Part shown: positions 30,001 to 64,000 of the stretch, in pieces | Numbering within the stretch: the stretch's first letter is position 1 | Layout of the letters: each line of letters starts with the position of its first letter | NCBI RefSeq assembly: GCF_964204645.1 | Contig: NC_134035.1 | Coordinates: 7,410,451 to 7,474,450 of the forward strand | Length of the DNA: 64,000 nt | Origin: Tubulanus polymorphus | Taxonomy: Eukaryota; Animalia; Nemertea | Reading direction: 5' to 3' | The notes under the pieces: generated by a model | The model's database searches: none | What the model was told of the DNA's origin: nothing | What the model saw: the letters and a program-made list of their open reading frames with translations, nothing else | Position numbers and translations under genes: made by a program

Positions 30001-33000
30001 AATAGAAATGAGCAGAACATTTTTTTGCCTCAAACCCCCACGCTACAGGCCTGTTCATAACATGATGTGGTATGACATAAAAACTTTACTTTTGGATTGG
30101 AAGACTCGATATATTGAGATCTAAGAACTAAATTGTAATTGAAAATGAACTAATTTTCATCAAGTATGTGTTATATTCTGGGGTACCATCTAACGGGATA
30201 ACTGGGTTTCTGGTACCTGATCTGCGCTAAACTGAGCGATTGGATGTTGTCAGGAATAATTTCTTATTGTATCTAATGACATTTTCGGTTTTATTTCAGA
30301 CCGGGGGTTTAAACGGGTTCATTCATAGTTTTATATCTGAAGTGTTAGCGATTGTACGAGCGCACGTGGTCGCTCTCGGTGGAAATGCATTGGTAGCGTA
30401 TAAGATGAGTGAATGTGTATTGCTCGATACACCGCACAAAAACCAGGTACATTTTAAATTGAAGTTTTGGCTTCATTTCTACTATGAATTTATCATTAGT
30501 TTCTCGATAAATAATGCTTATTAGTTTGCATTATTCGACTCAAATGCTGTGAGCAATTTTTGAAACAGATTTGACTTGTATTGCTTTGCTTTACATTGTT
30601 TGAATCTTAGTTTCCCAAAACTAACCTTATTTGACGTTCATTTATCTTCATGCAACAGCATCACGTCTTATCCCACTGAGCTACTGAGACTGTATATCTG
30701 GTTTCTGAACGCAGTGCTAACTGTAACACATGGTAGCCACAAGTTTACCCGTTGCTGGGTTAGAGTTCACTGAAATCTGAGTTTTTTTTTTAAAGAAATA
30801 ATAGATTCAATGATGGAGCAAAAGATCCTAAATGCTGAACCATGAACTACTTTAACTCTGCCACACACTTAGTGAAACGGCATATTTTTTATATCTCCTC
30901 TAGTTGATTCTACCCTTATGTAAACACCACATTATTGACTACATCTGATATTTCCTTCAGGATACGTTACGTGGGGCACATTTTAGAAGTTACCTTAGTT
31001 TGGGAACTATACCGCTAAACATTTTTTGGAGTACCCCGTACGTACGGTGGCGCCCCCATGAGCCACGTGACTCAATTTCTTCCTTAGCGCCGCCATTTTT
31101 GGGTGGTTCTTTCAATTTGGGAGCTGCCGTTTTCGATATTATTTGTGTTCGTGATGATTCAGTTCTGTTGGCTAGCTGGACCGTAATAGCACTTCGTTTC
31201 TTCGGTGAGTCCGTTACAATTCATTTTACCGAACAGAATTGCAATAAATTTGATCGTTAATACTCGCGGTCGGGGCAACTGCGACCACGTGCACAAGTGT
31301 TTCTTTCCCACGGTCGATTGATTTGTGCGGTGACTTCTCGCTAATAGCAAGCGAGCAGTCCGAGCCCGCTGACAATTCGTTTTCCTAAATAATTAAGAAA
31401 TTAATTATTAAATTAAATTGTCCGGGTTGTTTAAAAAATTTTTTTTTGTTCTTTCAGAATTGTAGTACTTAATTTTAATTAAACCTCGGCCTGAACCGGT
31501 TCCTAATTTTGTTCCAGTTCCGTCCGTAAGAAAGCCAGTCCCGACCCGGCTGGAACCAACTACCGGGTCTCGGACGGGTCCAAATGAGTCATCATCGAGA
31601 CGACTGTACATGCTTCGGCCCCGGCTAACCGCTCATATCCAAGTCCGGGGTCCGTTGCTGTACCAAAGAAAAGCCTAGACTCATCTGGTACAGGGATTTC
31701 GATCAGACTCAAATCTCCCGGACCAGGGACTGGGTCAACTCACTCAGCCGATCCAGGACTACCGCCCTCCAAAGGAAGGCCGGAGTCTCGTTTTTCTCCA
31801 CGAGCTCGCTCGCCCATGCGTCGCTCCCTGGGAGGAGGCGCAGGAAATGGTCACCGTCGCCCTCAGGCTCGACCTCATCCAGTAGGAAGAAGTAAGACCG
31901 TCACCGGCGTAGACGGGCACGTTCCCGGTCCAGCTCCTCATCGAGGTCTCGATCCTCGAGTAGGAGTCGAGTGCGTTCTCCACGCTATTACCGTAGCCGT
32001 CGAAGGAGGTTCCTTTCGCCGGAGCCGGCTGCTTCCACGTCCGGTTTCGTTTCGGCTGAGGATTTGAAGGCATTTCATGCAGAAATGCGTAGTATGTTGG
32101 AGTCGGTAAAGGGTCCTCTAGGCTCGACCGGAGCCGGAGCGCCAACCGCCTTCATCTGACTCGGAAAACTCCCGTCTCAAGGATGTTCCCCTCACGGTCC
32201 CCGACCCTAAGGATGTTGATGAATATTCCTTAGAGGCAGGCCACGGCACGCGTTCAGGCTCTAAGAAGCCATCGCCTCGGGTCCCGCCCGGAGGGTCCAC
32301 TTCCCACCCTCTGTTGGCGTTTGACCGACCGCCCAGTCCTGCGGCCTCGATCAACACGACTTTTGACAGTTCGACACCAGCAGATAGCCCTTTCCATCTC
32401 TTATTCAAGAGGTTTTCCGCAAGCATGGCGCCACTGTGCCTAAGCCTCATAAGTCTACGGATCAGGCTGAGTGTATGGCCTCGTATGCTGCCTCCGGATG
32501 AGACTCTCATGCTCTCCGCGAGTCCTCCGCGGTGACGGCCGAGTGGACACGGATCGATAGGCACTTGTGGGGTCAGGATCGGCCAACTGGTTTTGCCTAC
32601 CCCCACCGGAATCGGGTCTCAAGCAGGGAAAGCTCCTTTCTCTTGCTGAGCCACCGATCCCCGGTTTTAGAACATCCTATTATCATACACCCGGGTCAAC
32701 TGAACGTTTGCATGGTTCGGTGGAGGCGGACGTTAGATCGATTTTTTCCTCACCGTCGGTCGCGCCCGACCTTAACATTCAAATGCCTACGGCAGGGGTG
32801 ACCTCTTCCTTGTCATTCCTGGAAAATATTACGCGTATCGGGAGTTTCCAAGATATGGCCTTGTTGTCTCTGATAGGTAAGCTCCAGACATGAGCCCCAA
32901 GAGAGGTCAGGAGGTGCACATCACCCCTGTAATCGAAGAGTTGTTACAGAAGGGCGCACTCCAGCCGGTACAAAACGAATCCTCTCCAGGCTGGAGCTCG

Positions 33001-36000
33001 CGACTGTTTACCGTGCCCAAGGCCTCCGGAGGCCTACGCATGGTAATAGACTTGTCCCTTCTCAACAGACATCTCAGGGTGCCAAAGTTTCGCATGACCA
33101 CGCCGATGCAAGTAGTTCAGGCGTTCCGTCCCGGTCAATGGGCAGCGTCGATCGATCTGAAGGACGCATACTTCCAGGTACCGATACATCCCAAATCGCG
33201 TCGCTACCTCCGGGTCAAGTGGAAGGGTCGTCAGTATCAGTTCTCGGCACTTCCTTTCGGTCTAAGCTCGGCACCCTGGGTGTTCACCAAGCTGGTCAAA
33301 CCAGTCCAACGATATCTTCAAAAGAAAGGTGTGAAGATTTTCGTATATCTGGACGACTGGTTAATTGTGGGCAACTATCGGGACGAATGTCAGGCATCCA
33401 TCGACTTAGTTCTGGACCTGGTGCGGGAATTGGGCTTCAGGATAAATCTCGAGAAGTCCCAATTACACCCGTCACAAATATTCACCTACCTGGGCATGGA
33501 GTTTGACCTTCGCAAGGGCCAGGTGTTTCCCACTCAGGCCAGGGTAGACAAACTGCGGGAAGCTGTATCCGGCCTGTCGAGCACACCTCGGTCAGCGCGG
33601 TTCTGGTCCCGAGTCCTCTGTCAAATGAGCTCCATGTCCCTGGTGATTCCGCTGGGTCGCCTTCACAGCCGGCCATTTCAACGTTTTTGGAAGGCCTGCT
33701 GGCTACGATCGACAGGAGATTGGGAGGCTCTGCTGCCGTTTCCTCCTCCGGATCTGGATCCAGAGCTAAGTTGGTGATCGTCCCTTCGCAATCTAGAGGA
33801 AGGGTACTTCTCTGGCACCACTCCAAGCCCCCCTCCGGCTGTTTACCGACGCGAGTCATGCAGGTTGGGGTGCTCATTTGGAGAATTATCAGAAGGCCAG
33901 GAGATGCTCTCATCAGGAGGGGCTTCTCCATATCAATCAGTTAGAGCTCTTAGCGGTGCGCAAAGCCCTGGGTTTCTTTCACAGGAGGTTGACAGGCAGA
34001 CACGTGTGGTTAGCCACCGACAACCAGACGGTCAGGGCCTATCTTCAGAACCAAGGAGGCACCAGATCAGTTACGCTTACCGCTCTCATGGTGGAGATTC
34101 TTATCTGATGTCAAGCTCGAGGAATTCACCTTTCCGTGGTTCACCTGGCGGGCAAGAGGAACGTCGTTGCCGATGCCCTTTCCCGTCAGGATGCGGCCAT
34201 TTCTACCGAATGGTCACTTCACAGGGAAGTGGCAGTTCGAGTGGGGTCCCTGGTAGGCGTTCCGTTAATAGATCTGTTCGCCACCAGGTTCAACAAGAGG
34301 TTCCCGCTGTTTGTGTCATGTCCGATTCAAGTCTTATCAGCAGTCCTCGAAAAGATACAGCTGGCGTCCTCTTGTCTGATTGTTCTGATCGCGCCTTTCT
34401 GGCCAGCTCAGGCGTGGTTCAGTCGTCTTCTCAACCTTCTGTGCGACAATCCCAGGTGCTTGCCGCAATTTCCATCCCTCCTGTCGCAGAGGGGTTTCCG
34501 GAGGCACCCGGCACTAAAGATGCTCAACCTTCACACCTGGCCGTTGTCGAGTGACGCTTGGCGAGTGCAGGCTTTTCAGTCAGGGCTTCCTCGTTCATCG
34601 CTAAATCCAAACGCCCTAGTACAGGCGGGATTTATAACTCCAAGTGGAAGATCTATGGCGATTGGTGTAGTCAACGGTGGTTTGATCCATGCACTCCCCC
34701 TGTAGCCGCCCTTGCTGAATTCGTCCTCTTTCTTTTTGAGGTCAAAGGACAGCAGGTGGTAACCATTAAGGGTTACCGGTCCGCTATCGGCCATACTTTC
34801 AGGGCCGCTGGTATTCCGGACCTGACTACTGATCCCCGTATTTCCCAGCTCATTGCCGGTTTCACAGTAGCCCGGCCGAAAGTGCCTCGGGAAATCCCTC
34901 CATGGGACTTGGGGGTGGTCTTGAGATTTCTCATGGCTAGTCCGTATGAACCCCTCTCCGAAGTGAGTCTGTCCAAGCTCACTAAGAAAACAGTTTTTCT
35001 TATGTTTTTGGCTATGTCCGCTAGGAGGTCCGAAATTCATGCATTAACGACTCGACCTGGTCATATCGTTTTCGGTCCTGGTCATCGTTTTGTTGTTCTC
35101 CGCCCTTACCTCAATTTTATCGCTAAGAATCAAAGACCAGGTGCGGTTGGTAGAGAGTGGAGGGTGGAGGCTCTAACGCATAGGGTTCAATCCGACCTTC
35201 CAGATCGGGCGCTTTGTCTGGTTCGGGCATTATTTTATTTGCGTCGAACAGCCTCACTTCGGGGAGAGAGGGATCGGTTGTTTATTATGCTGAATGAGCA
35301 GTCCTCGAAGGATGTCTCGAAGGATACTATTGGTTGGTGGGTTTCAGAACTCATTCGTGAGGCCTCATCTTCGGTAGATGCCGAGTCTACTTGTGTTGTC
35401 AGTCATCAGGTGCGCGCGATGGCGACTTCGTGGGCAGCTTTTTCGGGCGCATCCATTGAGGAGGTTTGTCGAGGTGCATTCTGGAATAGTCAGAATACTT
35501 TTGCTTCCTTTTATTTGAAGGATGTGTCGGGACAGTTGGGTTCTCTTTCGTCGGTGGGCCCAGCGGTCATTGCTCAGGGCGTTCAGGTTTTTCCCTCGGG
35601 GTCTGCTCACTCCAGTTCTCATCCTGTAGATATATCGGATCCGTTTGATCCAAGTCAAAATGATTATTGATTGTTTTGCATTATTTTGGCTGTTTTCGTT
35701 TGTTCCGCAGCTAAGACCCAGGGGGTTTTTGCTGCCGGAATATCCTGGGGAGTGTGTTTGCCGTTCCGATTTAACGGGATTCATTTTCTCTCATAACCTG
35801 TACATATGTGAGCTTAAGCTAGGATATATCTGTACATGTATATGTTTTCTGTTGCTCCGGGCGTGAGTATAGTCTGGAATCTTTGTGCTGGGAGCAGTTA
35901 TATTTAACTTCGCAGGACCTTGTTGCCGAGAGCGATGGGCTAGTTCGGTAATTTGGTTTTGGCGCAGTTTTCAGGGTGAGTAATTTCCTTCTTTGAACAC

Positions 36001-36757
36001 GCTTTATTTGTGGTTTTAGTTTACACACATTTTTTGGGAGCCTTACCCGCCGCTTGGTGCTTGGCTAATCCTTCTAAAATGTGCCCCACATAACGTATCC
36101 TGAAGGAAATATCATAATTTTCCAGAGTAAAATTTGTATTTCTGAGGGATACTTATGTGGGGCTCAGGATATTCCCGCCCGTCTTCCCCGCTCGGCTCTT
36201 TGCGCTGAGTTTCGGAAGAAATTGAGTCCGGTCCACCGTATGGTACAGGGTACTCCAAAAAATGTTTAGCGGTATAGTTCCCAAACTAAGGTAACTTCTA
36301 AAATCCATGTAAGGATCCCTCAGAAATACAAATTTTACTCTGGAAAATTATGATTTTACAGTGAATTCTAACCTAGGTTTCTCTAAAATCAGCTGCTCAC
36401 TGATTATATTCAACCTGCTACAGGTATCGCTAGTAACCTTATCACTAGCAGGTACTATATTTTGATGTCGTATGACTCGTAGTCTCATCTGTATGTTTAA
36501 TAATGTGTATGATGTTATGTTCACAGGGTCAGTGTCTCGTAAACGTGTTCGGCGATGTCGCTCATGTCGTTTACGATTTTGAACTGCAGCCGATATCCGC
36601 CGACAGTATGTCGTCTTCGTCGAAACCAAACATGTCTCCGTTACCGCTCAACACGAAAAAACTGTCCGCCTCGCCGAAATTTCCGCCGCATCACGGTGCG
36701 CACGTCGGAGCCGTCAGTCCTCGTGATTTATCCAGACAAATCGTCGTCAAGTTATGA
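3100..36757 (+). CDS. C2CD5: C2 domain-containing protein 5 (C2CD5/CDP138), multi-exon, about 1082 aa
   Basis: GT-AG, phase-consistent exons: 3100-3189, 3725-3811, 3962-4133, 4966-5061, 5232-5448, 5840-5968, 9512-9675, 12700-12791, 13125-13233, 13612-13726, 14179-14382, 15925-16029, 16824-16971, 17341-17469, 17691-17753, 19353-19457, 22430-22534, 22880-22999, 23411-23491, 23573-23759, 25234-25422, 28451-28488, 28850-28975, 30300-30446, 36527-36757 (3249 nt). Translation MPAKLKVRVLAARDLPIMDRASELTDAFAEVRFSNTVFKTDV...EELVVNDDPEYQWIDKIRTPRASNEARQRL...GGVVSARSVKLLDRIHNPDEPETRDAWW closely matches the C2CD5 family as I recall it. Confidence 0.95.
4188..4424. mobile_element. piggyBac-type MITE
   Basis: TTAA target duplication (4184-4187, 4425-4428); TIRs CCCTTCCAGTGC / GCACTGAAAGGG. 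Confidence 0.8.
6270..9422. mobile_element. Non-autonomous PIF/Harbinger-like DNA transposon with nested insertion
   Basis: TIRs GGCCACACCAAAAGAAAACCCTGTT / AACAGGATTTTGTTTTTGGTGTGGCC, each flanked by TTA (3-bp TWA duplication); no transposase ORF recognised. Confidence 0.7.
8427..9119. mobile_element. piggyBac-type non-autonomous element nested in the Harbinger-like element
   Basis: TTAA on both sides (8423-8426, 9120-9123); TIRs CCCTTACGTTACCGG / CTGGTAATGTAAGGG. Confidence 0.75.
12325..12645. mobile_element. MITE with subterminal (A)CTTGGGAA repeats
   Basis: TIRs CATGGTTCCCACAG / CTGCGGGAACCATG, TTTAAT on both flanks, many internal TTGGGAAA motifs. Confidence 0.7.
14026..14115. repeat. 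Small fold-back element (16-bp perfect inverted repeat)
   Basis: GCTTTCGCATACAACT ... AGTTGTATGCGAAAGC. Confidence 0.7.
14515..14790. repeat. Dispersed repeat / MITE with B-box-like inverted repeats; related copy at about 41229-41553
   Basis: Both loci share AAATTTCAC(A/G)GAAGAACTATAAATGG and GTACCGTGGC...TCTCGATGCCATCAGGTTCGAAT. Confidence 0.6.
18115..18227. repeat. Short palindromic MITE (AGTTCCACAGTT TIR family); related copies near 38900-39001 and 47977-48282
   Basis: AGTTCCACAGTT ... AACTGTGGAACT, with an internal CTAGAGTTAAAA / TTTTAACTCTCTAG inverted repeat. Confidence 0.6.
19691..21895 (-). CDS. Ankyrin-repeat protein (about 355 aa), nested antisense in a C2CD5 intron
   Basis: Minus-strand GT-AG exons, all phase 0: 21895-21803 (MLTLAAAAAKGEGDVVNKHIQQGQNVDFQSR), 21586-21488 (YGQTALQNSCHQGQTTIVKYLIKAGATVDIQNQ), 21119-21021 (HGQTALILAATAGHTDIVKLLLNAGCDVNIRSQ), 20603-20505 (ASGSTALHYACKNHHTEVIKLLLKQADLTVLDR), 20368-19691 (VNKSAKFYTRSEPIIKLIKQHEE...VFSRLSPW*). 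The three 99-nt exons each encode one ankyrin repeat. Confidence 0.88.
23205..23330. repeat. Degenerate minisatellite (about 20-22 bp, TTAGTCAGTAAC core)
   Basis: Recurrent TTAGTCAGTAA(C/T) and CTAGAAT motifs. Confidence 0.55.
23807..24036. mobile_element. MITE with CAGGGGC..ATCT TIRs (related short copy 37620-37697)
   Basis: CAGGGGCAAATCTAGG ... GATCTGCCCCTG; second copy CAGGGGCGTATCTAG ... CTAGATCCACCCCT. Confidence 0.55.
25685..26073. mobile_element. MITE with GTTCACACT-type TIRs (Harbinger-like)
   Basis: AGCCATGTTCACACT ... AGTGTGAACGCAGCT, with internal TTCACAC/GTGTGAA repeats. Confidence 0.55.
26393..26407 (+). CDS. C2CD5: Candidate 15-nt C2CD5 microexon (adds ILVPR)
   Basis: Long pyrimidine tract, ...TTGCATTTGTAG | TTTTGGTTCCACGGA | GTAAGT; phase 1-1, fitting between exons 25234-25422 and 28451-28488. 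Confidence 0.6.
26642..26817. repeat. Intronic fold-back palindrome, about 176 bp
   Basis: TCAGTAAAA...CTAGATTTATTTAGAGTA...GCTACTAGTGCAT / ATGCACTAGTAGC...TACTCTAAATGAATCTAG...TTTTACTGA. Confidence 0.8.
31584..32893 (+). pseudogene. DIRS gag-like region, fragmented
   Basis: S/R/P-rich short ORF pieces in shifting frames, located between the left ITR and RT; assigned by position only. Confidence 0.45.
32890..34555 (+). pseudogene. DIRS pol: reverse transcriptase - RNase H - methyltransferase-like, disrupted
   Basis: RT motifs SIDLKDAYFQVPI, LPFGLSSAP and YLDD (32890-33777); RNase H LFTDASHAGWGAH, HINQLEL, TDN and NVVADALSR; MT-like IDLFATRFN...APFWPAQAWF. Stops at 33775 and 34106 plus frameshifts. 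Confidence 0.9.
34558..35670 (+). CDS. DIRS tyrosine recombinase
   Basis: Catalytic motifs SARRSE (R), HQVR (HxxR) and FASFY (Y); N-terminal core-binding segment YNSKWKIYGDWC...TIKGYRSAI. Confidence 0.88.
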   Translation: MASAGFSVRASSFIAKSKRPSTGGIYNSKWKIYGDWCSQRWFDPCTPPVAALAEFVLFLFEVKGQQVVTIKGYRSAIGHTFRAAGIPDLTTDPRISQLIAGFTVARPKVPREIPPWDLGVVLRFLMASPYEPLSEVSLSKLTKKTVFLMFLAMSARRSEIHALTTRPGHIVFGPGHRFVVLRPYLNFIAKNQRPGAVGREWRVEALTHRVQSDLPDRALCLVRALFYLRRTASLRGERDRLFIMLNEQSSKDVSKDTIGWWVSELIREASSSVDAESTCVVSHQVRAMATSWAAFSGASIEEVCRGAFWNSQNTFASFYLKDVSGQLGSLSSVGPAVIAQGVQVFPSGSAHSSSHPVDISDPFDPSQNDY

Positions 36758-49447: not shown

Positions 49448-49823
49448 GTACGTAAACTGCTTTCATTTCTCAAAACCATTGACCTAGACAAATTGCTGGT
49501 AACCCGAAAGACCTCACAAGAAAGGCTGGATCCAAGAACATGTCTATCGCACTTTTGAGCTCAAACGGCCACTTTTACTAAGTAGCCACTTAAGAACAAT
49601 AAGCAATTAACAATACCGGCTACTTTTCCAGTAGTATACATTTCAAAACAGTCACTCTGAAATAGTCTACCTTTCAATTCAGTTGGTTTTCTATAGTAAC
49701 TGTTTGAAAGAGTCTACTACTGAAATGTGACCGTTTAAAAACACCTGGTTCTGATAATCCACGCTAGCAGTTAAGGTGACTTAATCACCGAATTATACAC
49801 AGCGACTTTGTGATAGTAACTCC

Positions 49824-50030
49824 AGTAATAGGGGTAATGGGCTTTCATACCAAAGGTCGAAAGGTCGAGCCCGAGAAATTTTCCAAAATGTTAAAATAAC
49901 AACAATTTCTACTTGAATTAGTCGCGTACACTCCTAATTCAAGTAGAAATTATTATTATTTTAACATTTGGAAAATTTATCAACCTCAACCTTTCGACCT
50001 TTGATATGAAAGCCCATTACCCCTATTACT
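49824..50030. repeat. Terminal 207-bp fold-back palindrome of the Polinton
   Basis: Arms 49824-49921 and 49934-50030 (8 mismatches, 1 indel), with a 12-nt loop TCGCGTACACTC. Confidence 0.92.
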
Positions 50031-50031
50031 C

Positions 50032-50067
50032 TTAAATGTTATTCATATATATATGAATAACATTTAA
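50032..50067. repeat. Perfect 36-bp palindrome upstream of pPolB
   Basis: TTAAATGTTATTCATATA|TATATGAATAACATTTAA. Confidence 0.9.
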
Positions 50068-50114
50068 ATCATTGAACTTCTAAAATCAATTTTAATAAAA
50101 AATATAGTATTAAA

Positions 50115-53100
50115 ATGGAAGCAAATAAGTACTACTGCCCAACATGTAATATCGATATAGATAAATCCCAAAAAGCAAGACACAATAAAACTAGAACACA
50201 TTTAGAGAATAAATTGAAATTAGAATATGAAGATGATATATTAGAAAATAAATTAGAAGAATTAAAGGATGAAAAAGAAACATACAAATGTGATACATGT
50301 AATCAATCATTCAGTGATAAAAGATATTATAAAGAACATTTAAAATCTATAAGTCATATTAGAAATAAGAATAATGATATTTTAGGTGAAGATTATTTTG
50401 ATAATGATAACGATAAGAAACAGAAGACAATTAAAAGAATAAAAAATAAATTAAACAATAAAAGACCATATATGGAAGATGTAAGAAATTATATTAATTC
50501 ATTAGATAATAAAAAAGATATAGAGATAACCGAAGCATTTAAAAGTGATATTGGTCCAGCAGCTATCGAGTTTAAATTTCATAAAGGTAAAACATTAGAA
50601 GAAAATAAAAAACATTTAGAAAATATGAAAGAAATAATAAAAATAATTACAAACGTAGAATATCCTAAAATAAGTATATCTTCTAAAGTAAAGTTTATAA
50701 AATCTGAAGATAAACCAATATATAATATAAATTCTCATTCACAACATATTATATCTAAACAACATATAGATGATAAATTAGATAAATGTTATAATGAAAT
50801 AAAAACTAAAATAGAAGAGAAATATTTTGAAGGATCTGGTTTAATATTTGATGAGATAATATTTATAACTTTACATGTTTATAACACAAAATATAATAAG
50901 TTAACTAAATCAAAACCAATTGATGAAAATAATTTATCATATTATAAAGAACCCGATATTGAAGCATCAAGTTATATTAAACTACCATTTAAAACTAATG
51001 CTGTAATAAATATACAAAATGAAGATGATAAATGTTTTCTATGGGCTATAATAAGTTGTTTACATCCAACAGAAGATATTACACATAGTTTTAGATTAAC
51101 TCATTATAAACCATTTGAAAATAATTATAAGATAGATAAGTATCCTGTTAGAATTAAAAATATTCCAAAAATAGAAAGAGATAATAATATAAAGATAAAT
51201 GTATTTGATTTAATTAAATTACCAAATACAAAAGGAAATAATATTAAACATTATACATTAGAACCTTTATACCTATCAAAAGATTATGATTCAAATGATG
51301 TTATAGATATACTATATTATGAAAATCATTACATGTGGATTAAACAAATCGATTTATTTTTCAAATCAGAAAATGATCACCATAAAATATATCTATGTAG
51401 AAAATGTTTACATAGATTCAGTAATGAAAGTACATTATTAAATCATAAACAACTATGTGATAATCATGATTATTGTAAATTAGTTTTACCAAATGAAAAG
51501 GATAAAATATTAGAATTCAAAAAATATGATTACAAAAATAAAGTACCATTTGTAATATATGGAGATTTTGAATCATTAAATAAAGAATTAACAGATAAAG
51601 ATAGAAAAGATATATATTATAAAAGAAAGAAATTAAATTCTAATGAAAGTGATTATTCAGAAGACCCACCAAAAACAAATACAATTAAAAAGATTCATCA
51701 ATCAGCTGCAGCTTTCGGGTTATATATTAAATCTAATTATCCAGAACTAATCGAAAGTGAATATTATAATTATAGAAATGAAAATGTTATCAATCATTTT
51801 TGTGACTTATTAATTGAATATGAAATAAGATTTAGTAAATTATTGAATACAAATATAGAAATTATTATGACAGAAGAAGATAAAGAAGAATTTGAGTTTG
51901 CAGATAAATGTTATTATTGTGAAAAGATATTTAATTATAAAGATAAAAAAGTAAGAGATCATGATCATTTGAATGGAAAGTTTAGAGGCGCTGCACATGA
52001 GAATTGTAACTTACAAGCTAAGAAAATTAACTTTGTACCAGTTATATTTCATAATCTATCAGGATATGATGCACATTTATTTATCAAACAGCTATGTTAT
52101 AAAATAGAAGAAATCAATAATGAAATAGAAATATTAAATTCAAATAGATCAAAAGATAAAATACCAACTTATAAATTTAGAATGTTAGCTAAAACATCTG
52201 AGAATTATATATCATTCCAATTTGGTTGTTTAAGATTTATAGATTCATATAGATTTTTAAATAGTTCATTAGATAACTTATCAAAATCATTAGTTAATGA
52301 TGAATTAAAGATATTAAAAGAATATTACCCAAATAATGATGATTTTCAATTAATGAGATATAAAGGCGCAATTCCATATTCTTTCTATAAAAATCATAAT
52401 GATTTTAACATAACTGAATTATTAAAAGAACAATTCTATGACGAATTAAAAAAATGAATATGTTAAAGATGAAGTTTATAATAGAACATTGAATATTTGG
52501 AATCATTTTGAAATTAAAAATCATGGACAATTAGTAGATTTATATTTAAAATCAGATGTATTATTATTAACCGATATATTCGAAAGGTTTAGAGATGTAA
52601 ACCTAAAATATTTTAACATTGATCCTTGTCATTGTTATTCATCACCAGGATTAACATGGGATTGTGGATTAAAATTTACAGATATAAAAATGGATTTGTT
52701 AACAAATATAGATCAATTACTATTATTTGAAAAATCTATAAGAGGAGGTGTTTCAGGTGTATTGGGTGATAGATATTTCAATGTAAATGATAATCCTGGA
52801 TATAAATTATTATACATAGATGCAAATAATCTTTATGGTTGGGCAATGATGGAACCACAACCTTATGGGATGTTTGAAATAACTGAAGTTTTACAAATTG
52901 ATAAATTTGATTGGAAGAAAAGAATCCTAGATATTGCAGATGATTCAGATACTGGTTACTTCTTTGTTGTAGATTTAGAATACCCTGAAAATATTAAATT
53001 CAAATCTAGAAATCTAGCATATTGTCCCGAACATAAAACTGTTAAACATGAAGAATTATCAAATTATCAAAAAAGAATTAAACCCGATAATCATATTCAT

Positions 53101-54144
53101 ACTGAAAAGTTAATGGTGACTCAAGAAGATAAATATAATTATGTAGTACATTATAGAATGTTGAAGTTTTATTTGAATCAAGGAATGATTCTAAAAAAAG
53201 TACATAGATATATTTCATTCAGTCAATCTAAATGGTTAGAAAAATATATAGATTTTAATACTACACAGAGAACTAAATCTAAAACTGATTTTGAAAAAGA
53301 TTTCTTCAAACTAATGAATAATGCATTCTATGGTAAGACTTGTGAAAATATTAGAAATAGAAATGATATTGAGTTAGTTAGTAATGGTAAAAGAATTAGA
53401 CATTTACAATCGTATCCGAAATTCATAGGTAATAGAATATTCGATGAAAATTTAGCAGCAGTTAAATTAAAAAGAACTTCTATGAAGTTCAATAAACCTA
53501 TTTATGTTGGAGCATCGGTTTTAGAAATTTCAAAATTACTAATGTATAAATTTTACTATAACATATTACAACCCCATTTTGGAGAAAAACACATAGAAAT
53601 TCTATACTTTGATACCGACAGTTACATATTAAAGATAAAAACTGATAACATAACAGATGATTTAAAAACATTAAAACACCATTTTGATTTTAGTAATTAT
53701 CCTAAAAATCATGAATTGTTTAGCAATGATAATAAAAAAGTTCCTGGGAAGTTTAAGGATGAATTAGGTGGTGAAGAAATGATAGAGTTCATTGGTATTA
53801 GATCTAAAATGTATTCATATAAAACCAAAACTCATGAAGCTAAAAAGTTAAAAGGAATAACCAAAAGCGTTGTTGAAAAGAATATTCATTTCAAAGATTA
53901 CATCAATTGTATATTTAATGAAGAAGTTAGAAAACATAAAATGAAATGTTTAAGATCTGAAGATCATGAAATGTATATTGAAGAGATAGAGAAGATAAGT
54001 TTGAATCCATTTGATGATAAAAGATATATTTTAGATGATGGAATCCACACAGTCGCCTATGGTTGCAATTTAGATGAATATATAAAATTCAAAAGAGAAG
54101 AAACAAAAGAAAATGAGATTATGAAAAGGATTCTAACGTGTTAA
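50115..54144 (+). CDS. Protein-primed family B DNA polymerase (pPolB) with N-terminal C2H2 Zn fingers and an endonuclease VII-like insertion; split by one frameshift
   Basis: Exonuclease motifs YGDFES, HNLSGYD and FIDS; polymerase motifs YIDANNLYG, KLMNNAFYGK, YFDTDS and KMY. EndoVII-like CYYC...VRDHDHLNGKFRGAAHENCN. ORFs 50115-52457 and 52489-54144 join if one A is removed from the A7 run at 52448-52454. Confidence 0.93.
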
Positions 54145-54152
54145 TAAATTTC

Positions 54153-54175
54153 AATAAAAATTTGTATAATAAATG
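54153..54175 (+). promoter_or_regulatory. Putative intermediate-type promoter AATAAAAA-N-TAAATG (representative)
   Basis: AATAAAAA starts 20-21 nt before the ATG at 50094, 54153 and 61208; variant AATAAGAAAA at 54510. Confidence 0.6.
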
Positions 54176-54514
54176 GAGAGTAAACAAGTACACAGTGAAT
54201 TCTTAGATAGAATTAAAGATACTTCAAGCGTTAAATCTGTAGATTATAAATTCAAAAAGTTAACAGAATTAACAATTCACAAGAAATATTTAATTACTAA
54301 CATTGAAACAATTACTAATAAATATGGAGATAAATTAGTAATTCATTTAGAATATGAAGGATTAAAAGGAAATATATATAAATTCAGAACTTATTTACCA
54401 GATAGATTTCATAGATTATCAAGTGAAGATCTAGAAGAATTATGTTCTGGAGATTTCTATTTCGTATATAAAGGTAAGAATGAAAAAGGGCACCACGATA
54501 TTGATTTCGAATAA
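54173..54514 (+). CDS. Small Polinton protein, putative OB-fold ssDNA-binding protein
   Basis: 113-aa ORF right after pPolB; FKKLTEL...NKYGDKLVIHL...YLPDRF resembles small beta-rich proteins that I recall adjacent to pPolB in invertebrate Polintons. Function is inferred. Confidence 0.55.
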   Translation: MESKQVHSEFLDRIKDTSSVKSVDYKFKKLTELTIHKKYLITNIETITNKYGDKLVIHLEYEGLKGNIYKFRTYLPDRFHRLSSEDLEELCSGDFYFVYKGKNEKGHHDIDFE

Positions 54515-54531
54515 GAAAATATGTAAAATAA

Positions 54532-55290
54532 ATGGCGGAATTAAAAGAATACAGAATATTTGTAGATTCTAGAAAACTTACAAATTATAAATCTCATAAT
54601 TTACTAATACAATTAGATAGAGAATTCAAGAATTGTGTTGATTTAAAATTAGTAAATATAAGTTTATGTAATTCTTTTTACAATATATCGAATAAAACTA
54701 TTGAACATAATACTTTTTTAATTCATATTAGAAATATAAATAAATGGTTTCATCTATTTCTAAGACCAGGATTATATAATTTAGAAACATTATCTCAAGA
54801 AATTAATCGTAGAGCACGGTTGAAAATTAGAAAAGATGATAAATTTTTAATAAGATTTATAAAAAGTGATAGCTCAAATAGAATTAAAATAAAGGTATTT
54901 GATGAAAGTCAACATGCATTTATGGTAAAAAAACCTATAGCTAAATTGCTAGGAATTGAACCAGATGTTGTTACAGTAAACGTAGAAGGTATTTCAAATA
55001 TAATACCTTTTACACATTTTTATATTTATTGCAATTTAATTGACCCAACAAAAACATTTGAAGCAACTAACGATACAACATGTAATTCTAGTATATTAAA
55101 TATTTTACCATTAAAAAATGTTAAAGAATTTGGAACGCAAATAAATTATAATTTAACAGAATGTGATTTCAAACCATGCATTCCTCGTTTTAATAATTTT
55201 AGATTAGAAATTAGAAATCATAATGGATACTTAATTGATTTGAATAACTTTCCTGTAATTTATGAATTAGTTATAAGATGTAAAGAGTAA
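54532..55290 (+). CDS. Minor capsid protein (penton, single jelly roll)
   Basis: IFVDSR...SFYNIS...PGLYNLETL...FYIYCNLID...ILNILP...LEIRNHNGYLIDLNNFPVIYEL pattern typical of Polinton/virophage pentons; 252 aa, intact. Confidence 0.8.
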   Translation: MAELKEYRIFVDSRKLTNYKSHNLLIQLDREFKNCVDLKLVNISLCNSFYNISNKTIEHNTFLIHIRNINKWFHLFLRPGLYNLETLSQEINRRARLKIRKDDKFLIRFIKSDSSNRIKIKVFDESQHAFMVKKPIAKLLGIEPDVVTVNVEGISNIIPFTHFYIYCNLIDPTKTFEATNDTTCNSSILNILPLKNVKEFGTQINYNLTECDFKPCIPRFNNFRLEIRNHNGYLIDLNNFPVIYELVIRCKE

Positions 55291-59927: not shown

Positions 59928-59950
59928 TAATTTTTTTTGTTAAATAAATG
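59928..59950 (+). promoter_or_regulatory. Putative late-type promoter of MCP, TAATTTTTTTT-N-TAAATG (representative of 7 copies)
   Basis: The same motif starts at 55288, 55631, 55877, 56319, 56770, 58175 and 59928, always 19-20 nt before the ATG. Confidence 0.7.
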
Positions 59951-61195
59951 AGTGGGAGTTATATAAGTCCTTCGAAGATTTCTAGAATATCTAACGCTAT
60001 TAAAGCAGAAAGATCACATCATATAATTACTCATAACCCTTCAAATATTAATCCCGATGAAACTTTATACGTTAGAATTCCGAGATTAACACAAAATACT
60101 TTTTATGTTCCAAACAGTATTTATTTATCAGCTGATATAAAAGTAATCGGTAATAATAATAATTATGTTGTTGATAATGTTGGAAGATATTTGATTAAAA
60201 AGTTAACAATAAAGATTGGTCCAGAAACAGTTTTCTCATTAGATGATTATAATTTATTTATGCATTATAAAGATTTATGGTTAACTAAAGAAAATAGAAA
60301 TAATATGATATTTCAGGGTATTCAATCAGAAAACCAAAATAAATTAAGATCAGAAGCTAATAGCGCAATATTAACTAATGATGTAGATAAATTGATAAAA
60401 AGTATATATGGAAGCAAATATAAAATTCCATTAGACTTTGAATTGATAAATAATAATGCACCTTTATATAAATACGCAATTCAAGAAGATATTATATTTG
60501 AGATAACATTTGCTCCTGTTAATGAAATTGTATTATCTAGCGTTAATAAAGATATGAGTAATAAATTATCGAATATATGTTTAGAATATGATACAGTAAC
60601 TGATGAAAATATTTCAAGTATAATTCAAACTCAATACAATCAAGGATTTTCATTATTATATGATTATATTGATAAATTTAAAACTGTAACTATTAATGCA
60701 AATGATGAAATAATTAATGAGAATATTAACTTCCCTAGAAGATCTATTAAAGGTATATTAATATTTTTTACCATTGGAACGTATACTAATGGTGCAATAA
60801 ATGTTGACAATTATTATAATCCTGAAATAACAAAAGTAGAAATAACTATCGAAGGAATAGCGAATAAAATATTTTGTCAAGGAATGAGAATGATTGATCA
60901 ATGGGTAGAAATTAAAAAACATTTTATGAATGAAAAAATAAAATCATTTGAAAATTGTAACATTAATCAAATTGATTATTATACCGGTAATAAATATGCA
61001 TTATGGTTAGATTTTAGAACAACTGAAGATAATTCATTACATGGTTCTGGGAAAAAACTACAAAATACAAAAGATGGAATACAATTATTCATAACAAAGA
61101 AAAAGGGAATCAAAAATTTTAAAATGCACATTTATATTATATCTGACGCGCAATTAAATATTGTAAATTCTCAATTAGATAGTGTTATGTATTAA
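59948..61195 (+). CDS. Major capsid protein (double jelly roll)
   Basis: 415 aa, intact, beta-rich; NPSNINPDETLYVRIP, NVGRYLIKKL, YKIPLDF, NICLEYD, RRSIKGILIFF and YALWLDFRT resemble invertebrate Polinton MCPs; size and context fit. Confidence 0.82.
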   Translation: MSGSYISPSKISRISNAIKAERSHHIITHNPSNINPDETLYVRIPRLTQNTFYVPNSIYLSADIKVIGNNNNYVVDNVGRYLIKKLTIKIGPETVFSLDDYNLFMHYKDLWLTKENRNNMIFQGIQSENQNKLRSEANSAILTNDVDKLIKSIYGSKYKIPLDFELINNNAPLYKYAIQEDIIFEITFAPVNEIVLSSVNKDMSNKLSNICLEYDTVTDENISSIIQTQYNQGFSLLYDYIDKFKTVTINANDEIINENINFPRRSIKGILIFFTIGTYTNGAINVDNYYNPEITKVEITIEGIANKIFCQGMRMIDQWVEIKKHFMNEKIKSFENCNINQIDYYTGNKYALWLDFRTTEDNSLHGSGKKLQNTKDGIQLFITKKKGIKNFKMHIYIISDAQLNIVNSQLDSVMY

Positions 61196-61227: not shown

Positions 61228-62283
61228 ATGGAAGGTGGAATATATGAAATACAATCTCCAAGTGAAATGATATCAGATATATATTATATATTACCTTATG
61301 ATGAATACAGTAAGTATTTTGGAGATTACTTTAATCAATTCAAATATAGAATAAGTAAAATAGATAAGAATATTGAAACAAAAATAGAAGATAATATTGA
61401 ACCTAAAATAGAAGATAAGAATGATATTGAATATAAAATAGAAGATGATATTGAATCTAAAATAGAAGATAATGTTATACCTTCTACATCGAATGATGAT
61501 AAGATTGAAACAAAAATAGAATATAATATTGAACCTAAAATAGAAAAATCAAATGTTCAACCAAAAGATAACATCAGATGTATGTATTGTGAAGAAGATT
61601 TTGATAATTACAATGATTATTTATTACACATCAAAAAAGATGAACATATTTTACAATTAGTAAAAACATATGCCAATATATATAAAGATAAATGCAAAGA
61701 GGATCAGAATTATTGTGCCTTCTGTAATGAATGTATAACAAAGGCTAATTGGGCAAAACATTATAAATTAAAAACAAAAGGTGGAAATGATTCAGCCCAT
61801 GCAATACAAGTATTTAAATCTTGGTGTGAAAAATGTAAAGAATATGTAATATATGATAAACAATTGAATCATAAATACTCAATTAAACATATTGGTACAG
61901 ATAATGTAATAGAAAATCCAACAGTTATAAATCCAAAATTTAATAATAAGAATATATTAGATTATCGGTGGTATAGAAAAACATTTATAGATTATTTCTT
62001 GAGTAATGATATAGTTACCATATTGAAAAAGTTAGATAACTTTAAACCAAATGTAACTTATGCAATGAACTTATTTGAACTTAAATATGATGATTTTAGA
62101 GAATTTTTAAATAAACATCCATCTAAAACTGAAATCGAAAATTATATTCCAAAAATATTTTCAAGAGAAACATTTAGGAAATATAAACTCGAGAATTATT
62201 TAGGAATTATACCAAAGAAAATGCAAAGGGATATATATTTAGAATACAATAAGCTTAAAGAAAAATATGAAAATGAAAATTAA
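61228..62283 (+). CDS. Zinc-finger protein with KIE(D/Y)NIEP repeats (351 aa)
   Basis: CMYC...HIKKDEH, CAFC...KH...H and CEKC...HKYSIKH fingers; tandem peptide repeats at about 61370-61550. Confidence 0.75.
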   Translation: MEGGIYEIQSPSEMISDIYYILPYDEYSKYFGDYFNQFKYRISKIDKNIETKIEDNIEPKIEDKNDIEYKIEDDIESKIEDNVIPSTSNDDKIETKIEYNIEPKIEKSNVQPKDNIRCMYCEEDFDNYNDYLLHIKKDEHILQLVKTYANIYKDKCKEDQNYCAFCNECITKANWAKHYKLKTKGGNDSAHAIQVFKSWCEKCKEYVIYDKQLNHKYSIKHIGTDNVIENPTVINPKFNNKNILDYRWYRKTFIDYFLSNDIVTILKKLDNFKPNVTYAMNLFELKYDDFREFLNKHPSKTEIENYIPKIFSRETFRKYKLENYLGIIPKKMQRDIYLEYNKLKEKYENEN

Positions 62284-62287
62284 AAAG

Positions 62288-62667
62288 ATTATAGAATTCA
62301 CTGTATATTGATGGATGAATGGATGAGTTGGATGAGTTGGAAGAATTGGATGAGTGGAAGAGTGGATGAGTATAATAATATATATATTTTACTTTTTAAC
62401 ACATAAATTGGAAGAATAGTATGAGTATAAATATAATATTTTTATTCTTTATTAAATTTAACACAATATATATATATATTATTAAAATAATATTTAAATA
62501 TAGTATAAAATTGATAAAATAACTTCAAATCAAACTCTTACTGTTTTAAAAATAAAAAACATATGTAAATTATATATTATTACACTCATCCATTCATCCA
62601 CTCATCCAATTCATCCAATTCATCCAATTCATCCACTCATCCATTAGTATACAGTGAATTCTATAAT
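62288..62667. repeat. Inverted repeat (97-bp arms with 7 TGGA(T/A)GA(A/G) iterons each) between convergent Polinton genes
   Basis: 62288-62384 versus 62571-62667, 9 mismatches and no gaps, around an extremely AT-rich spacer. Confidence 0.9.
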
Positions 62668-62683
62668 ATTTTGAATTAGGATT

Positions 62684-63298
62684 TTATTTTATAAATTTAT
62701 ATTCATATGGAAATTGTAATCTCATAAGTAATTTGGAACCTTTATTATTCTTTAATTTATTCATATATTCATCATGTAATTCAGTAGGTATAATTTGATT
62801 TTCTTCCAATGATTGTTGCATAGATTTTTTATCTTTGTTATAAAATAAAACTAGAAATCTTATATTCTCTCTAAAGTCTTTCACAATTGAATTATATTTC
62901 TGATTTAAAACCCAAGTTGTTATCCCAAAATGTCTCCCAGAGAAAGCTAAATAACATAACTCACTTTCTCTAACTTTTGAATCATGTAAATTTGCGCAAT
63001 CATCGATAATAAATAATGTATTAGATCCTTTATAAATATCTAATGCAATTTTTATACAATTATCTAAATTATCTTTCACTGTTTTAGAATTTAATATAAT
63101 AAACTTTTTATCTTTAAAAACTATATCTCTATTGTACGTTTCATTCATTTCATAAGTTGGGCAGAATAATATTATATTATCAAAATGATTCTGATAAATA
63201 GTTTCTAATAAATCTAATATGAAGTGTGTTTTACCACAATTTGTAACTCCAGTTATTAACATATTATGTGGTTCAAATATAAATAAATCTTTATTCAT
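62684..63298 (-). CDS. A32/FtsK-like genome packaging ATPase
   Basis: Walker A GVTNCGKT, Walker B FIIDD, SGRH arginine-finger motif; 204 aa, intact. Confidence 0.92.
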   Translation of the reverse strand: MNKDLFIFEPHNMLITGVTNCGKTHFILDLLETIYQNHFDNIILFCPTYEMNETYNRDIVFKDKKFIILNSKTVKDNLDNCIKIALDIYKGSNTLFIIDDCANLHDSKVRESELCYLAFSGRHFGITTWVLNQKYNSIVKDFRENIRFLVLFYNKDKKSMQQSLEENQIIPTELHDEYMNKLKNNKGSKLLMRLQFPYEYKFIK

Positions 63299-64000
63299 TT
63301 ATTCTTTTAATTTTACTAGATAAAATCCATTCATTAAATTTATCATCGTATCCTTTATATTTCACCAAAGAATACTTTTTTCCTTTAAGAGTTTTAGTTT
63401 TCAATACCTTTTCTATTTTGTATTCTATTTCATCTGGATTTGGTACTAATGCTAATTCTTGTTCATAAAAATAACCTAATATTTCTTCATCTTTTAAATC
63501 AAACAATTTATAAACAAATGGTTTAGTTAATATTATCTTTTTAATTTTAAATATTTCTTCAGTAAAATTAGGGGTATAACCTTTATAAAATGTTTTTCGA
63601 TATTTAGAAATTCTAACATGTTGTCCTATTTTAAATTTAGGTTCTCCGAAATCATGTGTAACAAACGCACCATATAAATTATTCCAAACTCTTCTGAATT
63701 TTCTTCTTGTCTAGCTTGTATAGGTTTCATATTTATAGAACTATGTTTAGAATTATTATAACCTTTAACTAAATCATCTAACACATCGATATATTTATAT
63801 GTTTCATTAGCGGTGAAATATTTCCACATTCTAGTTTTCAATGTTTTATTAAATCTTTCTATAACAGATGCTTTTTTATCTGAATGTGTTGAAAAATATT
63901 CTACATCGTTATCAGTTAATAGTTTTTTAAAATGTTTGTTATAAAATTCTTTACCTTCATCAAATTGTATTTTATCTGGGATAGCTTCTTTAAATATTAA
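63291..64000 (-). CDS. Retroviral-type (rve) integrase with C-terminal chromodomain; 5' part outside window, frameshift near 63690
   Basis: IQFDEGKEF...ASVIERFNKTLK (second D and E of the DDE triad), YNNSKHSSINMKP; after a 1-nt loss, KFKIGQHVRISK...YKIEKVLK...LVKYKGYDDKFNEW (chromodomain). Confidence 0.9.

Follow-up and report, generated by a model that had tools for sequence, protein, structure and literature searches.

The left end of a Polinton/Maverick element in Tubulanus polymorphus is a 207-nt fold-back at 49824-50030 of the window, by which we mean the whole 64,000-nt stretch of DNA analysed (NC_134035.1, 7,410,451-7,474,450, forward strand). The fold-back lies at the true terminus of the element and is found family-wide, its arms change together, and its strand-dependent mismatches belong to one class. 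Our tentatively favoured explanation is that it represents the conserved tip of the Polinton terminal repeat, and that the strand ending 3' at the terminus may fold back and rebuild a duplex end locally for protein priming; the folding and origin steps are those that we infer.

The outer arm (49824-49921, plus strand), which begins with AG, pairs with the inner arm (49934-50030, plus strand) across a 12-nt loop (49922-49933); the arms, of 98 and 97 nt, form 89 Watson-Crick pairs, with eight mismatches and one unpaired A. Apart from that A, which went unmentioned, this is the fold described in an earlier note made from the letters alone (about 98-bp arms, 12-nt loop, eight mismatches). The note had also claimed that six of the eight mismatches set a left-arm C against a right-arm A and become wobbles only on the minus strand, and both pairing and fold energies reproduce this. 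The six C:A mismatches (element nt 27, 43, 48, 49, 77 and 80) turn into G.T on the minus strand only, the remaining two are one C/C and one G/A, and the number of plus-strand G.T pairs is zero. Outer-arm C faces A in 6 of 15 cases, and outer-arm G faces T in 0 of 20 (Fisher p=0.003). With DNA parameters, the predicted folding energy is -89.7 kcal/mol for the minus strand vs -80.4 kcal/mol for the plus strand; 100 mononucleotide shuffles gave -13.5 +/- 3.0 kcal/mol, with a best value of -20.9. A comparable mismatch bias is absent from two other inverted repeats in the window (2 vs 5 and 3 vs 4).

The palindrome stops at the hairpin edges, with no extension into either flank. One base behind it lies a perfect 36-bp AT-rich palindrome (50032-50067), which is indel-rich among copies, is not evident behind the hairpin in the relatives L006 and L008 (see below), and could block extension from a folded 3' end. 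When the flanks of 49824-50030 were compared, no target duplication was found, as the note had stated, but the bases that it took for the right flank are element body by read depth. The host 6-mer before the element (49818-49823) would be the left half of an expected 6-bp target duplication; the reads have heterogeneous loose ends before 49823/49824.

The element is a Polinton/Maverick whose right end lies beyond 64000. GC content falls from about 37% to 22% at its start, and the 14 kb after the hairpin contain a two-piece protein-primed polymerase, a double jelly-roll capsid protein, an A32 ATPase and part of an integrase. The capsid protein (59948-61195, plus strand) gives a structure model with a pLDDT of 84.6 and a Foldseek match to the PBCV-1 capsid (E 6e-17), and the A32-type packaging ATPase (62684-63298, minus strand) matches PF04665 (E 1.2e-12). 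The retrovirus-like integrase part (63626-64000, minus strand), which from its motif we take to be rve, is cut by the window end and has a weak match to a PHROG transposase (E 9e-6). No Pfam or PHROG match to a minor capsid protein or maturation protease was found in the window ORFs, the element running past the window; 54532-55290 is a candidate. A 113-aa protein (54173-54514, plus strand) provides a weak lead, and a lead only, to phi29-type ssDNA-binding proteins (score 0.84); a similar small ORF is found between hairpin and polymerase in L006 (571-933) and L008 (338-721), and behind the polymerase in the window. The left end has AG at the read-defined terminus, in the same register in L006 and L009, and the element start AGTAAT differs by a single base from the (AGT)2 motif of PMC8097293. 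The element probably belongs to Beta/group 1 of PMC8502044, with an OTU-bearing pPolB, a class assigned from the absence of a PF03175 match.

Three further features of the window may be recorded here. A 115-nt inverted repeat (88%; 62270-62384 and 62571-62685) lies between convergent zinc-finger and ATPase genes and has no minus-strand bias (5 plus-strand G.T vs 2 A.C). A GC-rich element at ~30950-36360, which we take to be DIRS-like, contains reverse transcriptase-like and tyrosine recombinase-like ORFs and has split inverted ends. A separate host repeat (49520-49745; read depth ~1000) lies 80 bp left of the Polinton.

The N-terminal part of the protein-primed family B polymerase (50115-52457, plus strand) includes zinc fingers, a predicted PRD1-like terminal protein, a vOTU domain and an EndoVII insertion, and the C-terminal part of the same polymerase (52690-54144, plus strand) is 82-85% identical to single proteins of 1319-1365 aa. 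The gene is broken in this copy, the gap at 52457-52690 having stop codons in each of the three frames. In the structure model of the first ORF (pLDDT 80), the predicted terminal protein (about aa 119-256) is an alpha/beta domain whose best PDB matches are weak ones to Y-family polymerases (~120 columns, E about 0.01), one of them an isolated little-finger domain; the available text of bioRxiv 2024.03.18.585575 gives Polinton terminal proteins the same Y-family-like fold. Ser241, in a Ser-Gly between the second helix and the last strand, is present in 79 of 81 aligned proteins, and the vOTU residues Cys307 and His405 in all 81. The zinc and catalytic residues of the EndoVII domain (aa 586-634) are near-invariant (His616, 81/81; Asn632, 80/81). 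Judged by these residues, the polymerase appears to have kept its protein-priming module (terminal-protein serine and vOTU residues). No match to a Rep/HUH nickase was found in the 15 or 12 window ORFs searched, several ORFs having no assignment and the element being incomplete in the window.

One raw-read run of the same species and three contig sets were aligned to the region, and the raw run was aligned again to 49790-50100. Depth, ~3 in the unique flank, reaches 2330 at 49823-49833, and 2105 reads run leftwards past 49823/49824 into unrelated sequence (agreement 0.34). The first A therefore marks the true terminus of a family inserted several hundred times. Copy numbers are rough estimates with a noisy denominator: ~750 ends, 475 hairpin-body junctions and 210 polymerase copies. 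Just behind the inner arm, at 50037-50045, the depth is 1433-1496; the bases after 50030 are therefore element body, and the inner arm is an inverted copy of the terminus continuous with it. Indels, reads of ambiguous placement and some solo copies may each contribute to the drop across 50031, from 2400 to about 1460, which is only partly explained. Among the six largest loose ends (each of at least 466 reads, with 122 smaller ones beyond), none lies behind 50030, so only a minority of ends, be they inverted isomers or solo copies, join the inner arm to host DNA. The earlier note had proposed a comparison with other copies, and the hairpin is indeed present, and body-linked, in many (depth ~1460). 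The flip/flop isomers that it envisaged do not occur 1:1 among integrated copies, in which host-flanked reads number 2105 at the outer arm vs fewer than 466 at any single inner-arm position.

The copies are not uniform. In concert, 1257 reads depart from the window sequence beyond nt 47, and there are thus subfamilies whose interiors differ; a further joint departure, by 503 reads behind 50069, would fit either a right-end copy or a separate subfamily. In single reads, hairpins occur in shortened form with a portion of the loop retained; strand-switch joints have only a few reads each, and the loop differs among copies and is not conserved in L006. Among the 17 left-arm variants listed (40 of 79 variants in all are listed, unphased), nine have a counterpart at the pairing position, complementary and of similar frequency, and eight are unmirrored, 49862 A>G (25%) being a change that would give a plus-strand G.T; best-fit placement of reads on either arm may create mirrored variants and inflate asymmetry, and 659 of 7287 reads fit two places. 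Three C:A sites of the window (49871, 49900 and 49903) read T in at least half of the outer-arm reads and are thus not family-wide, whereas nt 27 has no variant on either arm among those listed. The reads also add an inner-arm A opposite an outer C at 49996 (77%) and 50003 (36%).

Six metagenome loci cover the N-terminal region of the polymerase at 60-85% identity, and the predicted hairpin is conserved in full in one of these relatives (L006) and in part in another (L008). The L006 fold-back (polymerase 85% identical), a 257-nt AG...CT structure, spans 190-446, and a GC step marks its left border; over nt 1-29 it differs from the window at 10 positions, 8 of which have matching changes in the two arms, and the two hairpins share C:A mismatches at nt 27 and 43. 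L008 (82%) begins inside a hairpin, with an inner arm of the same type. L009 (74%) has the outer-arm motifs in the same register and no inner arm, and the hairpin is therefore dispensable in the clade, while L007, L010 and L011 stop short of the element end. Upstream of distant pPolB genes (37%), L059 (7368-7550) and L003 (4657-4840) have ~185-nt palindromes with ACTACT...AGTAGT ends, whose outer motifs differ from those of the window and whose termini are putative; in L003, genes lie on both sides of the palindrome, as in an end-to-end junction. Plus-strand G.T is absent from the arms of the window, L006, L059 and L003. Self-comparison of 121 loci detected these four end-motif palindromes or parts of them (L008 by fold), a count that gives no frequency since most of the 121 contigs end before the element terminus. 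A six-arm profile run across the window and the 121 loci matched only its own sources, the exact end motif had only two chance matches in viral contigs (L004 and L005), and capsid and ATPase scans of viral contigs gave no match.

As features of the sequence, the mirrored arms and recurring C:A mismatches speak for folding of the strand that ends 3' at the terminus and against random deamination. Both readings had been offered earlier; minus-strand folding is strengthened by the recurrence at nt 27 and 43 in L006, and deamination of a single-stranded intermediate was rejected because the same mismatch positions are found in a relative, only two of the six fall at CpG, and neither C>T nor G>A predominates over 1.8 kb in the reads (44 vs 40 places). 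Cruciform extrusion in duplex DNA was also rejected, as it would favour neither strand. The folding of the 3'-ending strand that the bias suggests would be common to a local origin, to self-priming and to an unselected by-product.

Of the two strands at the left end, it is the minus strand that terminates there with its 3' end. Copying by strand displacement, or single-strand excision, would leave this strand unpaired at that end, and it could then fold, with G.T wobbles tolerated in that strand only. The rebuilt duplex end would provide a local origin for the terminal protein and polymerase, and perhaps for the integrase, in place of a long end-to-end panhandle. Protein-primed synthesis would begin at the extreme tip and run on through the hairpin, so that outer and inner arms keep a constant orientation; the fixed C:A mismatches may identify the outer arm as the functional end and stop the inner copy from acting as a second one. 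Kept protein priming and fixed orientation fit such re-initiation at the tip better than hairpin transfer. In the available text of PMC4150772, however, a single-stranded overhang, whether 5' or 3', makes phi29 origins inefficient, and the fold-back would leave such a 5' extension, which counts against a local origin. Because of these phi29 data and the hairpin-less L009, our confidence in the local origin stays somewhat short of even.

An inverted duplication produced by fold-back or template switching, with arms homogenised by occasional arm-to-arm copying and no selected job, is unlikely, though far from negligible. There is wide variation in stem length and loop (single reads with shortened hairpins, 257 nt in L006), L009 has no hairpin, and accidental annealing is named as an alternative in the available text of bioRxiv 10.64898/2026.07.28.741278, which cites Kapitonov and Jurka 2006 for it. 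Under frequent arm-to-arm copying, however, the fixed mismatches at nt 27 and 43 would be lost, and neutral drift would yield both mismatch classes, whereas the ratio seen is 6:0 and the control repeats are unbiased. The hairpin has moreover been retained in hundreds of copies and two other lineages, and even a by-product would still require the 3'-ending strand to fold.

It is rather unlikely that the folded 3'-OH itself primes into the body, as in rolling-hairpin replication, with the junction cut by the EndoVII domain or the integrase and protein priming used at other steps only. The favoured fold would bring the 3'-terminal T to the base of the stem, beside the template, so that the mark of parvovirus-type ends, a 3'-terminal fold-back able to prime, is seen here in the predicted fold only. 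The near-invariant EndoVII residues also suit self-priming, as does the existence of parvovirus ends with a single orientation. The same model has been proposed for protist virophages and PLVs (bioRxiv 10.64898/2026.07.28.741278, available text). Against it stand the lack of 1:1 flip/flop among integrated copies, the few reads per strand-switch joint, the conserved terminal-protein and vOTU residues and the missing Rep/HUH match in those 15 or 12 window ORFs. Of 119 loci, 43 have the EndoVII motif, among them L009 and L030, in which a long fold-back is missing, and a hairpin-specific EndoVII resolvase was rejected as unspecific on that account. The hairpin telomere or self-priming end suggested by the earlier note is thus weakened in its parvovirus or poxvirus form, since the priming module is kept and inner-arm-to-host ends are a minority, and self-priming retains a low probability. 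Similarly doubtful is a hybrid lineage that combines protein priming with a fold-back end, in which the 3'-ending strand would self-prime or rebuild the end and the EndoVII domain of the polymerase would resolve the hairpin junction; if real, it would mix adenovirus-type and hairpin-telomere replication.

A role in RNA is improbable. An antisense transcript reaching the end would fold, with G.U pairs, and regulate the polymerase gene or yield small RNAs; the predicted RNA fold of the 207-nt hairpin is stronger for the minus strand (-146 vs -120 kcal/mol) and the polymerase starts only 85 nt behind it, but an RNA would have no need of a stem that reaches precisely to the element's first base, as this one does. 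A solo MITE beside a Polinton, an assembly artefact or one-off deamination is largely refuted and very improbable: although both hairpin ends read AG...CT, and up to ~900 of 2400 inner-arm reads are not carried at full depth into the body, so that some solo copies may exist, the true terminus, the link to the body in ~1460-deep reads and the lack of a target duplication bear out the earlier view that this is not an independently inserted MITE, L006 and L008 have the same arrangement, and the arms and loop differ, unlike those of a fold-back artefact.

The rolling-hairpin ends of parvoviruses and the flip/flop telomeres of poxviruses are among the closest known counterparts of this end. The likeness lies in a terminal fold-back with conserved mismatches (PMC8956199, in its available text). 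Unlike those ends, this one has no Rep found with it and no 1:1 flip/flop, and it belongs to an element that integrates and encodes protein priming. In the adenovirus/PRD1 panhandle, a displaced single strand likewise rebuilds a duplex end for protein priming, but there, according to the accessible part of PMC11886824, both genome ends pair, whereas here one end could suffice.

With known Polintons/Mavericks the element has in common a pPolB with terminal protein and vOTU, an integrase, an A32 ATPase, a double jelly-roll capsid and the AG start, and it differs in that the terminus itself is a long imperfect palindrome. In their available text, PMC8097293, PMC8502044, bioRxiv 2023.08.22.554363 and PMC6431247 describe Polinton ends without terminal palindromes, and 'hairpin' and 'palindrom' are absent from that of the first three. 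A literature search found one report, seen in part, of terminal palindromes in this virus group (bioRxiv 10.64898/2026.07.28.741278); an earlier mention is possible, Kapitonov and Jurka 2006 and Repbase lying outside the search, and the 2006 paper may already mention palindromic ends. Chromosome exit and replication restart of Polintons are modelled rather than shown in the portions available of the papers cited. A strand-preferring conserved end would say which strand is single-stranded and folded, and as a short, defined substrate it could separate protein priming, self-priming, integrase binding and EndoVII cutting.

The Halocafeteria virophages and PLVs offer a further parallel, with a palindrome inside the terminal repeat, beside the host junction, for which hairpin priming has been proposed (bioRxiv 10.64898/2026.07.28.741278, available text). 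There, as far as that text extends, the palindrome is 52 nt long (figure), the host is a protist, the elements are preferentially those without pPolB, and no strand bias is reported; here, palindromes of 207-257 nt stand beside a pPolB that appears to keep its priming module. The range of terminal palindromes thereby grows from protist elements lacking the polymerase to include ones in which protein priming is retained.
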